This document shows, piece by piece, positions 672-56,795 of a DNA stretch of 64,000 nucleotides. Numbering within the stretch: the first letter of the stretch is position 1; each line of letters opens with the position of its first letter. A program made the translations under genes and the position numbers. Location: the NCBI GenBank assembly GCA_964016885.1, contig OZ024742.1, positions 207,080,001-207,144,000 of the forward strand, in the 5' to 3' direction. The notes under the pieces are model-generated. The model did not search any database. It saw only the letters and a list, made by a program, of their open reading frames with translations, and was not told where the DNA came from. Origin of the DNA: Eledone cirrhosa. Taxonomy: Eukaryota.

Positions 672-1012
672 TCATGAGTGAACAATTATAATATTATAAT
701 ATTAGTAATATTTGGTTCCTTTGCAAGCAAACAACCTCATAGCCCCATATGTGTTTCTATATGACTGACGTCAGTAGCAGAGAGAAAATAGTTGACAATT
801 GTTTCACAATTATTGCCCCTTCTCTCGTCACTGCTACTCACTGGAGCTGTTAAGAATATATAGTATTCTCAAAGGTATACATTGGCACATTAGCCTAATT
901 TGCATACCAAGTGATGTTACGGCTGGCTTTGCAGAAAATTGAAAACAAAATTTGTTTTTGCTCTAACATGTGGATATAAAATGCATTTGTTAGAGTCAAA
1001 ACAAATTTTGTT
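672..1012 (-). mobile_element. non-coding PLE-terminus/retrozyme-like unit with octamer, TATATA and core-deleted HHR remnant (773-838)
   Basis: ATTTGCAT 898-905, TATATA 857-862; minus strand GAAACAATTGTC (794-805) inside long stem AGTAGCAG..GAGAGAA/TTCTCTCTGCTACT; TA-rich flanks. Confidence 0.5.
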
Positions 1013-1039
1013 TATATATAAATATATACTAAAGCCTTC

Positions 1040-2200
1040 CCTGGGAAAGAATGGACTGCCCAGAACAAGTTAGTTATTAGTGACATCACAATATAAACAA
1101 AAGACAGAATAAGACATGCAGGGAAATATGGAGACGGAATGTGTGGAAGCTAAAGAACCTGTCGGTTAAATATACGTTTCAAAAGGCCCTACATGATGCA
1201 CTTGATGATAGGGGATGACACGTTAGATACATATAATGTAGAGGACAACCGAACATTCTTACGTGACGAACTATTGTGAACTACTAGCAAGACATGTGGA
1301 TGGAGCTTTACTTTAGACAGACAGATCTAATGGTGGAACAGCATAATAGATACAGCCATTAAACTCAAGAGACAAGCATGACAAGACTGGAAAAATGGGG
1401 GTAGCAGAGACCAGTACCAAGTTGCTAAGAAAGAAGCTAGGCAACAGGTATACTCAGCTCAAAGAGCGGTTGAAAAAAGTAAATTTGCTAATGTCTTGAG
1501 ACATGGGGATCAGAGATGTGAAGTGTTCTGTATTGCAAGGCAGTGTGTTAGAGGGAATTGAGATGTTGTTGGGGGAACATGTGTTAGAAATGATGCTGGT
1601 GCACTTAGCACCACAGATGCCCAAAAGAAAGAGGCCTGTAAATGTTATTATGAGAGATTGATGAATGTAGAGAATGAATGGGAGGAAAGAAAACTACACC
1701 CAACTTACCCAACAGAAGGAACAGCTACTGAAATTGATAGTTTTGGGGTCAAAGACATAATCAAAGAGATGAAGAATGGTAAAGCTGCAAGACCATCAGA
1801 AATATTTGCTAAGATGCTAACAGCATCAGGAGAGGTAGGAGTCAAACTAGTAACCCACATAGTAAATCAAGTAATACAGGACGGAGTCATACCCAATGAT
1901 TGGCGCAGCAGTACAATCATAAATTGCTACAAGGGCAAATGTTGTGCCCTAGAAAGCAGCAACTATAGAGGAATAAAACTAATGGACCAATTATGAAAGT
2001 GACAGAAAGAGTTATAGCGCAGCTAATTATGGATAGATTCAAAATAGATTAGATACAGTTTGACTTCGGGCCTGGGAAAAGTACTACAGATGCCCTCTTC
2101 TTAGTGAGGCAACTACAACAGAAGTTCCTTACCAAAAATAAACCACTATATCTAGCTTTTGTTGACCTAGAGAATGCCTTTGACAGAGTCAAAACTAAAG
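1040..2200 (+). mobile_element. RTE-clade LINE reverse transcriptase remnant
   Basis: ORF 1658-1996 MKNGKAARP..IPNDWRSSTIINCYKGK..NYRGIKL, followed by a YLAFVDLE-AFDRV-type segment; homologous to 41380-42048. Confidence 0.85.
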
Positions 2201-2694
2201 TGCTAGATAGTTGGATAGAGGGTGAGACACAGATTTCCCAGAGAAGTGGCCATGCTCAGTTGACAGAAAAGGAGTAGGCACGAATATTGGGTAATGACCA
2301 AATGTATATGATCCCAAATACAAGTGGCCAAACTGGGGTTCCTTCGAAGGGTCTTTGGCGTAATGTTCTCAATAGAGTGCATAACTCAGAGATCAGAAAA
2401 TCACTCCAAGTAGAGCCACTGCTTCCCCATATTGAGAGATCACAACTCTGATACTATGGGCATGTGGTTAGAATGTCTCAGAAAAGAATCGCTGGACAGA
2501 TTTTACAGGCAAAATAAAGCAACAGGACACCCAGGGATAAATCCCAATTAAGATGGTTGGATAATGATACTAATGGAATTTGCCTGGTATACAGAAGCAA
2601 ATCATGGAAAAGTTTGGAAAGGACTTAGAGAAATAATGAGAAGGTCAACTCATGGTATGGTAGCAAAAAATATCAGGGTATGATGTTCATCAAT

Positions 2695-3527
2695 CAGAGC
2701 CAGATTTAGAAGTTGAACACAAAAAATGAAAATGCACAAAAAACCCATTAAGTTTACATTTCAATGTGTGCTTGGCATATGTAATTGGGATTGTCAAGTT
2801 ATACATACAGATTTTAAATGAAAAAATCTGTTCCCCTTCATTTTAAGTGCACTTTCTAAACTAAACGTACTTTAAAATACACACAAATATATATATATAT
2901 ATATATACATTTATAAATACACCCATACACACATGCATACATATATACTCCATATTATTGCATACATTTTGGGTGGTGGATTGGCAGTATCGGTAGAGGG
3001 TCGGACGCCATGCTTTCCAGCATAGTTACGTCCCTTTATGATCTGAGTTCAAATCCCGCCGAGGTTGACTTTGCCTTTCATCCTTACGGGGTCGATAAAA
3101 TAAAGTACCAGTAATGCACTGGGTAATTTGCTGGCCTTGTGCCTAAAGTAGAAACAATTATTGCATACATTTTGACAATCACATCCCTTTACCTTATACG
3201 ACAGCCATCTCATGTTGCTAAAGTAAAGAAATTTTGATGAATTGCCATAAATATTTTTTTTATAAAATGTTGTCCTGATAACAATTTGATGACTCTAAAG
3301 TAATGAAATTTCGATGGACCGACCATAGGATTGATATTAAATACTTTTTGTTAAAAGTATTGGTTTGGTTTATCTAAAAGATAAAATAAGAAGCCCCATC
3401 AGGTGGCATGACTTTGGCAGTTCATGGGCACATCTATTTTACTAGGCCCCACATCTGCCGATATGGTCCACAGCTGATGGTGGCCTGGGGAAAATTCCCT
3501 GTCTGCCCTACTATAAATCTGGCCCTG
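2695..3527 (+). mobile_element. non-autonomous hAT-like DNA transposon (MITE) containing a SINE
   Basis: TIRs CAGAGCCAGATTTA / TAAATCTGGCCCTG; 8-bp flanks TCATCAAT vs TTGTCGAT differ only as CpG decay of TCGTCGAT would predict. Confidence 0.5.
2972..3156 (+). mobile_element. tRNA-derived SINE (family A, Meta-like central domain)
   Basis: A box TGGCAGTATCGG, B box GAGTTCAAATCC, core GCCTTTCATCCTTACGGGGTCGATAAAATAAAGTACCAG; 18-bp TSD ATTATTGCATACATTTTG (2954-2971/3157-3174). Confidence 0.9.
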
Positions 3528-3806
3528 TTGTCGATACTACTCCTAGACATGAAATAGCGTATCAATTTAGGAGATAAACTGAACCTAATATTAAACTGAA
3601 CCTAAGAATTAAAGTGGTAGAAAAATCAGAAACTCCTATACAATCTCTGATCAGTGGGACATACCCTTTTAAGAAAATCCCCTGTACTGATAGAAACTGA
3701 ATAGTATGTAAGATAAAACCACAGGTGAACTGCAAAACTAGAAATGCAACCTATAGGATAAAGTATACAGATAGACGGTGCAGAAATATGAAAACAACAT
3801 ACATAA

Positions 3807-54215: not shown

Positions 54216-55435
54216 ATCCATTCTGCTACTCTGCTAAACTCCTATGTGGAAAAAGTACGTTGAGTGCTTGAATTGAATTGCATCAATATTTACCTTAAGT
54301 ATATATATATATATATTTATTAAAATAACAGATTCTGTTATTTTAATAAATATTTGCTCTTCGGTTCTTATATATTTGATATATATTTTCCTTATCGAGC
54401 CCTCTCTGGATTTTAGTCTTCAATTTTATTATTATTACTATATATATATATATATATATATATATATATATATATATATATATAGAGAGAGAGAGAGAGA
54501 GAGAGAAAGATAAAAAGATAGATAGATAAAGAAACATGTATTTCTTTATTTGCCACCAAGGCGCACAGGAAAAGGGGACAAAACAATGACACCTGCCGGG
54601 GATTTTACATACAGTCGTGTAAAAATATTGAAACAAGCAAGATAGACAGAAAGTAAGACAGATAATTAGATAGGTCCAGATTGATAAACAGATAGATATT
54701 TCATATAGGAAGAATGAGAGACAGGTAGATATATATAAACAGATAAGGATAGATATAAATAGATGGCATACATAGAATAAAAAGAGACACTTCAATTTAA
54801 AGGGACATGTACACACACTTAGATAGGGAGACCACTATATTATTGAATTCATAAGTGTGTAGTTGGCAAATCCAGTGCATATGTGTGTGTGTGTGGAAAC
54901 GAATGTGTCTGAGTGGGACGTAAGAGTGCACATGATAGTGAATGCAACAGAGCCAACTCTGGTGAGTGGTAAGGCTGCTAAAGGATGTGAAAATAGGTGA
55001 GAGGTGGACAGACAGAGATGGTGGCAGAAGGGGAGGAGGATTTCGAGCAATTAGGTTTTAAGGTACACAATTTTAATATAGCTGAAGAACTTGTGGTTAG
55101 TGGGTACTGGTGAAAGTAGTGGGGAATGACAAGAATTGGTGTTGCATGCAGGTGGGTGAGAGGGAACAGAGTAACACACACACACACACATATATATATG
55201 TATATTCTATATATATTGTCTCTCTCTCCCCCTCTCACTCACTCACTCTCTCTCTCTATATATATATATATATGTATGTTATGTTGCTATTCATAGCTGT
55301 GTTTACATCAGTAGGCAGACTTTTGTTACCATGAATTTTAAGTTAGCAAAAACATGTCTTAATTATTCTAATACCCATTCTGAGGTACAGTATTTATAGT
55401 GAACTGCAGGTAAATACATATCAACGTAGCTTCTA

Positions 55436-55622
55436 TAATTGTTTCTACTTTAGGCACAAGGCCAGCAATTACCTAGTGCATTACTGGTAATTTATTTTAT
55501 CGACCCAGTAAGGATGAAAGGCAAAGTCAACCTCGGCGAGATTTGAACTCAGATCGTAAAGGGACGTAACTATGCTGGAAAGCATGGCGTCCGACCCTCT
55601 ACCGATACTGCCAATCCACCAA
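55436..55622 (-). mobile_element. SINE family A
   Basis: full reverse-complement copy. Confidence 0.9.
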
Positions 55623-56553
55623 TGCCACGATATACTGACTGAGTAATAACATAATCATATTGAATGTAGGCCTAATTGTGTTGTTACCCATAAGTAATAA
55701 CATCTATTTCGCTCACACACGGCTGATTTTGGCTAGCTGTAGAAACCAAGCCCAAATCAGCCCCGTGTGAGAAAAACACAGTCCTCGACCTGACATCTCT
55801 CAAAGGGAGAGTAGTGAATACAGATCAATATCTTCATCATAACATTTGTGTTTAGAAAAATATCTTGATACAGAAATGTTAAGCTGTTGTTCTGTAAAGA
55901 ATTAAGATCGACTTTTACATTCACTTTTTGGCAAAAAATTGGGTGGGTGGGGTGCAACTCTTTTTAATATATATATGTGTGGTTAGCATGTCTCAGGAAA
56001 GAATCGCTGGACAGATTTTATGGGCAAAACCAATTGGCAAGAGACCCAGGGGTAGACACAAAGCAAGATGGTTGGATAGCATCCTTGAGCTTGGCTGGTC
56101 AACTTGGGGATCCAGCCAGATAAATTGGAGATGGTTGCTTCTGACAGTCCCCGCTGGAAGGAGTGTCTGAGGACTCTTCCCCCTCAACCCTCTCAAGAAT
56201 AAGTGGGCGAGAAGAAGATATACATATATTTATATATATGTGTGTGTCTATGTGTGCGTGTGAGTGTGTGCATTTGCATTCTTTTATTACTTCCAGTATT
56301 TTAAAATAAATTTCCCATTCTTTTTAATACTATAACTATTATATATATATATATATATATATATATACACACACACAAAAACACACACACACACACACAT
56401 ATATATATATATATATATATATATATATATATATATATATATATATGTATAGACATTTCGTATTTCTAAAGAAACACGGTTTTAGGAAGCCGTAGATATG
56501 GAAACACCGGGGCTAACACCCTCTGGTGGTGTCCAACAGAAGCATGGGGGACA

Positions 56554-56597
56554 ACCGTCTATGCATTTCAGGCTTGACTGGCCTTCTTCAGGATGGT
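56554..56597 (-). ncRNA. minimal type I hammerhead ribozyme, canonical core
   Basis: ACCATC-CTGAAGA-AGGC-CAGTCAA-GCCT-GAAA-TGCA-TA-GACGGT; palindromic ATGCAT; long interrupted stem I. Confidence 0.85.
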
Positions 56598-56795
56598 CCC
56601 TGCCACCGCTTGCGACTGCTGGACTTGAAAACAGTCGAGAATATATAGTTTTCTCGTCTGTGTAAATGAGGTGAATATTCTCATTTGCATATGAAGCTGC
56701 ATAAGTTGGCTCTACTTATAATAGAAAAGAAATAGACGAGAAAACTATATATTCTCGACTGTTTTCAAGTCCAGCAGTCGCAAGCGTTGGGAGGG

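Follow-up and report, generated by a model that had tools for sequence, protein, structure and literature searches.

The DNA analysed here, hereafter the window, is a stretch of 64,000 nucleotides (nt) from Eledone cirrhosa (contig OZ024742.1, positions 207,080,001 to 207,144,000). It carries three divergent repeat units in which an octamer is followed by TATATA and then by a hammerhead ribozyme or its remnant (Table 1). This arrangement, referred to as the cassette, was pointed out in a sequence-only reading of the stretch, and a motif search finds the three octamer/TATATA pairs exactly where that reading had placed them, with gaps of 35, 34 and 35 nt in units 1, 2 and 3. The motif common to the three units is larger than the octamer and comprises the 12-mer TATGCAAAT(T/G)AG. 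The cassette is real and occurs more widely in the genome than had been noticed, and it is probably better read as a host small nuclear RNA (snRNA)-type promoter.

The window contains seven octamers, four of which have TATATA at a gap of 33-36 nt. With a TATATA density of 0.041 per site, the probability that at least three of seven octamers are so placed is about 0.002, a value that does not come from independent draws because the three units are related repeats. The fourth pair (octamer 56279-56272) takes its TATATA from a microsatellite and lacks a ribozyme; this octamer had been listed as isolated, and the same list had missed one at 60679. The octamer/TATATA motifs are not due to chance. 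Across the 3.0 Gb genome, the octamer followed by TATATA after 33-36 nt occurs 36,790 times against 6,644 for the reversed control, while the off-spacing control with a gap of 21-24 nt gives 8,555 against 4,983. The enrichment near hammerheads, which had been proposed as a check, is found as well: the 12-mer, TATATA and a hammerhead core 36-66 nt further give 18,269 matches, with none in the reversed control. The 100 matches listed belong, by eye, to the families of units 2 and 3 (families A and B), and such pattern counts reflect copy number.

All three units lack an open reading frame (ORF), as had been proposed. The expectation of a hammerhead or remnant in each unit holds in graded form: the minimal type I core is intact in unit 3, kept in unit 2 with a GAA cleavage triplet in place of the GTA of 14/14 other family A copies, and missing from unit 1, a remnant that has lost it by a deletion relative to family C, as the alignment shows. 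The Rfam scan of the window called no hammerhead in any unit and returned only microsatellite-driven miRNA matches. The long interrupted stem I described for all units is seen in the folds of units 1 and 3 and of the family copies L009 and L007 (z from -2.5 to -2.9, but 0.07 for unit 3 itself), whereas the minimum-energy fold of unit 2 is another pairing. The start predicted for units 2 and 3, at 30 nt from the beginning of the TATA as in U6, falls 16-26 nt ahead of the core, in agreement with the promoter-like layout suggested earlier.

Table 1. Features of the three cassette-bearing units and their immediate neighbours in the window. Scores refer to the TCAG-box matrix; the caret precedes the predicted start (+1).
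Feature	Position	Strand	Basis and remarks
Unit 1, old ORF-less family C retrozyme-like unit	626..981	-	blastn to natural family copies; alignment
Unit 1 12-mer containing octamer	895..906	-	motif search
Unit 1 degenerate U1/U2/U5-type box, predicted -57	878..891	-	score 1.7, p 0.029
Unit 1 TATATA	857..862	-	predicted +1 at 832
Unit 1 hammerhead remnant	773..838	-	arms of stem I and GAAAC-AATT-GTC retained, core lost
Unit 2, family A retrozyme monomer, (TA)n at end	23107..23557	+	420-510 nt tandem unit elsewhere
Unit 2 AT-rich hairpin/tail segment	23124..23173	+	family A insertions end at both of its sides, ~-95 and ~-38 from octamer
Unit 2 12-mer containing octamer	23210..23221	+	motif search
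Unit 2 TCAG-type box position, mutated	23225..23238	+	score -3.4
Unit 2 TATATA	23253..23258	+	predicted +1 at 23283 (GC^A)
Unit 2 type I hammerhead	23268..23354	+	core 23299-23305, GAAA 23320-23323, cleavage triplet mutated to GAA
Broken Penelope-like element adjoining unit 2	23551..25233		inverted 3′ end 23551-23885; reverse transcriptase/GIY-YIG fragments on +; not part of cassette
Unit 3, family B retrozyme-like unit	56411..56735	-	blastn to copies L007, L197
Unit 3 12-mer containing octamer	56680..56691	-	motif search
Unit 3 TATATA	56642..56647	-	predicted +1 at 56617 (GC^A)
Unit 3 type I hammerhead	56531..56624	-	core 56591-56585, GAAA 56569-56566, palindromic stem III, predicted cut after 56560
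Inverted 5′-truncated second family B copy with tail	56734..56999	+	inverted repeat I4; Penelope-type insertion structure

Retrozyme units and their ends

Family A consists of an ORF-less unit of 426-508 nt that occurs as monomers and as head-to-tail arrays of three to six, and families B, C and E occur chiefly as monomers or as inverted pairs, with their ends permuted. The family A hammerhead is a minimal type I ribozyme with a palindromic stem III; its core reads the canonical CTGAYGA in 12 of 14 copies, and GAAACTAGTA is likewise present in 12 of 14. Minimal hammerheads of this kind are described as dimer-dependent in the account of PMC4209133. The ribozyme is intact in family B and mostly non-canonical in the core of family C. 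The latter family is old: unit 1 has 42 genome matches (a lower bound) at 75-86% identity, and the TATA position reads TATGTA in 17 of 25 copies, TATATA in 7 and TCTATA in 1. Its copies (L130-L154) seem to have spread with the non-canonical core, mostly G8 to A, together with TATGTA. Another variant, subfamily A2 (L008, L015, L028, L195), carries a 7-nt deletion between the TATA and stem I, which puts the predicted start 8 nt ahead of the core.

Of the family A unit ends, 66 were followed: 29 run into the next unit, 19 are long, 15 are short and three could not be classified. The long and short ends join (TA)n at about 38 nt and about 95 nt upstream of the octamer position, respectively, and inverted 5′-truncated partners are common. 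The few examples from families B, C and E end at about the same distance from the octamer, the long 3′ end lying some 37-41 nt upstream of it in A, B, C and E. Two adjacent internal start sites of reverse transcription, giving a genomic tail, are presented in PMC11167929 as particular to Penelope-like elements (PLEs), and the two fixed 3′ ends, the inverted 5′-truncated partner and the AT-rich targets observed here carry the signature of such mobilisation. Some copies are permuted and longer than one unit. The absence of an ORF, the short head-to-tail unit and the type I hammerhead (damaged in units 1 and 2 of the window) are features of retrozymes without long terminal repeats (LTRs). The three units belong to three related ORF-less tandem repeats, which fit non-LTR retrozymes with Penelope-type ends.

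Unit 2 adjoins a broken element which, from its motifs, we take to be a PLE; Pfam returned nothing informative on six PLE-like frames. The possibility that family A is the pLTR, the terminal repeat of this neighbour, was rejected, since family A stands before only one of 25 copies of this PLE's end, the window's own. The family A/PLE junctions differ and hold a microsatellite, and the stretch beside unit 2 is the inverted 3′ end of the PLE. No family A unit fixed to a reverse transcriptase/GIY-YIG ORF at a constant junction was found, the neighbouring PLE family being the only one directly tested, and PLE fragments are about as frequent near family A sites as near non-cassette loci. The 3′ end of the neighbouring PLE (23551-23885, minus strand) holds a possible variant hammerhead core, CAGAAGA, and has at least 40 near-identical copies in the genome. 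Elsewhere in the window (10633-13638, 14694-16080, 19937-21121, 40272-42087 and 35778-37495) lie what are presumably fragments of reverse transcriptase/endonuclease of the long interspersed nuclear element (LINE) type and of hAT-like transposases.

Cassette families and their conservation

The gap between octamer and TATA is 33-35 nt in families A, B, C, F and G. The single 34/35-nt spacing first proposed does not cover all cassettes, as a second class has a gap close to 39 nt. In family E the gap is 39 nt in 15 of the 23 copies counted and 38-41 nt in all of them, copies with other gaps having been left out. In the older family K it is 39-40 nt; a clear hammerhead core is kept in two of about nine copies and a degenerate one in a third. 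A pattern that excluded families A, B and C and left the gap free between 24 and 48 nt gave 66 matches against none in the control. The 49 distinct sites examined comprised a small number of A and B variants with indels, one or two chance matches, family E, and the divergent families F and G (gaps 33-35 nt); the leading T of the 12-mer, which the pattern did not require, was present in 45 of them. A pattern with U6 spacing matched 646 times against 64 in the control, and the 20 loci picked from it include family K and intermediates between A, B and C.

Intermediate copies (L366-L368, L374) connect families A, B, C and G, among which blastn finds similarity in the promoter stretch only. When one representative of each of six lineages (A, B, C, G, F and E) is compared, identity reaches 0.94 in both the 12-mer and the TATA, and 0.29-0.36 in the flanks and spacer (0.36 in the spacer). 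The claim that the motif is better conserved than its surroundings is thus upheld between lineages; within family C the 12-mer (0.951) exceeds its flanks (0.867-0.933) in uniformity by a small margin only.

Hammerheads can also be searched for without the cassette. A hammerhead-only pattern gave 2,558 matches against 190 in the control. The 12-mer lies within 150 nt upstream in six of the first 30 loci and in 12 of 70 when 40 picked for diversity are included, against a background of 4 in 852 windows. Its distribution among the clusters is uneven: 7/9 in G, 4/11 in F, 1/10 in I (off position), 0/11 in H and 0/8 in J, with none in two pairs (0/2 each, one pair being 5′-truncated family A) or in 17 singletons. 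Families F and G are recovered here with no motif in the pattern; the pattern that yielded E included the motif. Rfam Hammerhead_1 matches the genome 74 times; the 30 matches examined are one family, D, and the octamer is found upstream of 0/30. The layout is thus no general trait of hammerhead repeats but the mark of a single superfamily; at least four further families with hammerheads are without it.

Several cassette-related words occur outside this layout. Upstream of the cassette, family G copies (L238, L281, L301) hold further repeated words that resemble the octamer and TCAG. At 60678-60689 of the window, the full 12-mer stands in another repeat (also L045, L369 and L370), without a clear TATA or a hammerhead on the same strand; a hammerhead-like motif lies at 60551-60515 on the opposite strand. 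Cassette-free hammerhead-like motifs are located at 27156-27178 (+), 30776-30818 (+) and 30661-30619 (-), and belong to family J and to an inverted pair that lies within a palindrome of 168 nt.

Host small-RNA promoters and the choice of polymerase

The host promoters compared with the cassette are all those of small-RNA genes, in 11 classes. With at most one mismatch, the 12-mer is found at -90 to -60 in 12/20 U6 loci, in 1/8 U6atac loci (the best-scoring one), in the only MRP gene and in both tRNA-Sec genes. In these genes it lies at -76 to -79, with a TATA near -30 and a gap of 38-40 nt. It is absent from U1 (0/14), U2 (0/14), U5 (0/12), U3 (0/8), U12 (0/1), SRP (0/8) and RNase P (0/1), and its background is 4 in 128,000 positions. 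Many of the loci without the 12-mer are tandem copies, so the independent promoters are fewer than the loci counted. In six copies of a U6 array (L037, L038, L040-L043), a repeat insertion of about 190 nt displaces the 12-mer to -270; the other two of the 20 U6 loci have no 12-mer nearby, nor do four weaker U6 matches.

The genes for U1, U2 and U5 are alike in carrying AATTA near -89, the TCAG box between -55 and -58 and, near -30, a TATA-like word. Since a TATA or TATA-like word near -30 is present in both host gene classes, the TATA does not tell the polymerases apart here. In other organisms, the sequence or spacing of the proximal sequence element (PSE) sets the polymerase, according to PMC9652321. 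The host promoter code consists of the 12-mer at -76 to -79 with a TATA for type 3 genes of RNA polymerase III (Pol III), and of AATTA near -89, the TCAG box at -57 and the TATA-like word for U1, U2 and U5. A matrix of the TCAG box, built from 15 distinct U1/U2/U5 promoters, scores -1.3 to 19.9 when each is left out in turn, and the Pol III genes score -6 to -12. The SRP genes have neither the octamer nor the U1/U2/U5-type box. In the RNase P RNA gene (L258), which ends in a T run, the U1/U2/U5-type box scores 15.3 and lies at -66 from the Rfam start; the octamer is absent.

Judged against this code, there is a good chance that the cassette is a promoter of one polymerase or the other. The reading that we tentatively prefer, short of real confidence, is a built-in snRNA-type promoter which, in the class with the 34/35-nt gap, would be read by RNA polymerase II (Pol II). 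For 24 of the 25 family C copies, the best site of the TCAG-box matrix falls at -57, with scores up to 16.3 (3.2-16.3 in copies other than unit 1), as it does for all five family G copies (10.7-17.0, p up to 0.0003). At 30 nt from the TATA start, families A, B, C and G share with U1 the sequence GC^A, and E and K often show Y^G, as U6 does. Runs of T6-T7 are found inside two of the four family A arrays checked, and T4 runs in the other two. Since these runs precede the long 3′ end, the template RNA extended beyond them, which favours Pol II.

In the preferred reading, a POU factor and SNAPc would bind side by side, and transcription would start about 30 nt after the start of the TATA. The transcript would read through the T-rich hairpin and the promoter of the next unit, and hammerheads of the dimer type would cut out the monomer, which would circularise. 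A Penelope-like reverse transcriptase would then start at internal sites 38 or 95 nt 5′ of the octamer and copy more than one round. Since the RNA that is copied stops short of the octamer, on its upstream side, a single-pass transcript would be without the promoter; the permuted copies longer than one unit point to a circular or multimeric template that regenerates it. Such permutation would hand the promoter, which lies outside the primary transcript, to each new copy.

A number of observations weigh against this reading. The TCAG box is weak in A (2.0-3.2 in three copies, p 0.015-0.025, or about 0.02), in B (-0.9, p 0.08) and in most F copies, and within the window units 2 and 3 do not score (1.7, -3.4 and -5.3 for units 1, 2 and 3). 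The matrix also fails on the held-out U3 genes (-6 to -7). In place of the AATTA word near -89 the cassettes carry the octamer 12-mer, which among the host genes is found only at Pol III genes, and the 34/35-nt gap matches no host gene examined. The 3′ box of U1/U2/U5, defined from their flanks as AAAA(Y)CAGA(C/A)T, is absent from four family A arrays. The GC^A word is also part of stem I and may be kept for pairing. The argument from T runs is weakened by family E, which combines a T run right after the ribozyme with a U6-like layout. In family C, TATGTA predominates and most copies lack a canonical core. All lineages may descend from one ancestor and then count as one origin, and both transcription and its start sites are deduced here from sequence.

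Rival readings, precedents and significance

The strongest alternative is the same promoter read by Pol III as a U6-type (type 3) unit, with full-length templates produced by read-through of leaky T-run terminators. For the window's families this is rather unlikely; in families E and K, with their gap of 39-40 nt, it becomes the more probable of the two. The restriction of the 12-mer to Pol III genes among the host classes speaks for it, and the gaps of E and K agree with those of U6, U6atac, MRP and tRNA-Sec (38-40 nt). Neither of the two family E copies tested scores for the Pol II box, and several copies of E and K have the U6-like start. The compact H1 promoter, which holds octamer, PSE and TATA within 84 bp, is reported to drive both polymerases (PMC11340601). 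The cassette shares with type 3 promoters the 12-mer upstream of the TATA, but in the window's families the gap falls 4-5 nt short of that in every host Pol III gene, and only E and K have the type 3 spacing. Families C and G carry the Pol II box, and T4-T7 runs lie inside the unit, so that T6-T7 runs would have to be passed; in E, a T run stands just after the ribozyme.

Alternatively, the conserved stretch may act as RNA, as a binding site for a Penelope-like protein, its likeness to a promoter being inherited or incidental. In A, B, C and E the long 3′ end falls a short way upstream of the octamer, so the motif stands just 3′ of the start of reverse transcription, and the anole element PAc needs RNA downstream (3′) of its internal start sites, as given in PMC11167929. 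We regard this as improbable: it leaves unexplained the identity of the 12-mer with that of host Pol III genes, its fixed distance to the TATA, the U6 spacing in E and K and the position of the U1/U2/U5 box, and no pairing pattern is evident in the poorly conserved spacer.

The sequence-only reading had seen in the cassette a Pol II promoter of mRNA type, driven by a POU factor as in immunoglobulin genes and without SNAPc. In the immunoglobulin layout, the octamer stands about 70 nt and the TATA 30 nt before a pyrimidine/A start, which fits the cassette, and families A, B and F have no strong snRNA box. The extended 12-mer is, however, the element of host small-RNA genes, where together with a TATA it marks the type 3 genes of Pol III, and the snRNA box is present in C and G, which are linked to A and B by intermediates. 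The immunoglobulin parallel is thus quite improbable. Least probable of all is neutral inheritance, in which one ancestral unit held these words by chance and they have not yet been lost: the shared ancestry of the families and, within old family C, the slight margin of the 12-mer over its flanks suit it, but it is already largely excluded by the identities between lineages, where the flanks are at background and the 12-mer and TATA are not, and the same word stands at the same place in host genes. Even taken together, the readings other than an snRNA-type promoter are unlikely.

An snRNA-type promoter inside a hammerhead repeat has a precedent, of which the sequence-only reading was not aware. 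The promoter of newt satellite 2 reportedly consists of an octamer and a PSE. The satellite is described in PMC2220036, citing Coats, Zhang and Epstein (1994), as a hammerhead tandem repeat with an internal snRNA-type promoter that drives Pol II. The units described here share this arrangement and differ in having a TATA box, the octamer directly 5′ of the box, at least seven families in an invertebrate and a second, U6-spaced class. They resemble metazoan non-LTR retrozymes in the ORF-less tandem units, the type I hammerhead, the occurrence of monomers and multimers and the PLE-type mobilisation (PMC7229834; bioRxiv 10.64898/2026.07.22.740005). In the available text of these two sources no such promoter is described: the word occurs twice in the former, both times for T7, and is absent from the latter.

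Other systems are more distant. Gene-external octamer/TATA promoters have a TATA near -30 and are compact like H1, and E and K copy the host spacing; in contrast, the 34/35-nt class has a shorter gap, a Pol II-type box and a location inside a mobile unit. The pLTR promoters of Drosophila virilis Penelope and Chlamys-3, as outlined in PMC8557442, likewise involve a start in a terminal repeat, tails and inverted 5′-truncated copies, but they are internal and intron-overlapping in ORF-bearing elements, whereas no ORF is fixed to the cassette. The schistosome satellite, with an internal Pol III promoter (PMC2220036), and the plant LTR retrozyme NbRZ1, with its own promoter (PMC12029980), are also hammerhead elements with a promoter upstream of the ribozyme; these promoters are of other types, and the octamer/TATA cassette does not appear in the accounts seen. 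A literature search, thin in subscription papers and thus no proof of absence from print, found no account of this cassette, of the U6-spaced class or of the host promoter code.

The source of the abundant transcription of animal retrozymes is left open in the accounts of PMC7229834 and of the 2026 preprint. The cassette offers a concrete, mutable candidate promoter with a predicted start, in a family with more than 18,000 intact cassettes, and the host small-RNA promoter code (12-mer at -77, TCAG box at -57) may be useful for the expression of guide RNAs in this animal group. A bolder and doubtful scenario is that the retrozyme superfamily captured a host U6-type promoter and passes it on by circular permutation, and that one branch went from Pol III to Pol II through a shortening of the gap from 39 to 34/35 nt and the gain of the U1/U2/U5 box. 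If this is true, the genome would hold tens of thousands of mobile snRNA promoters, a natural series for what decides the choice of polymerase.

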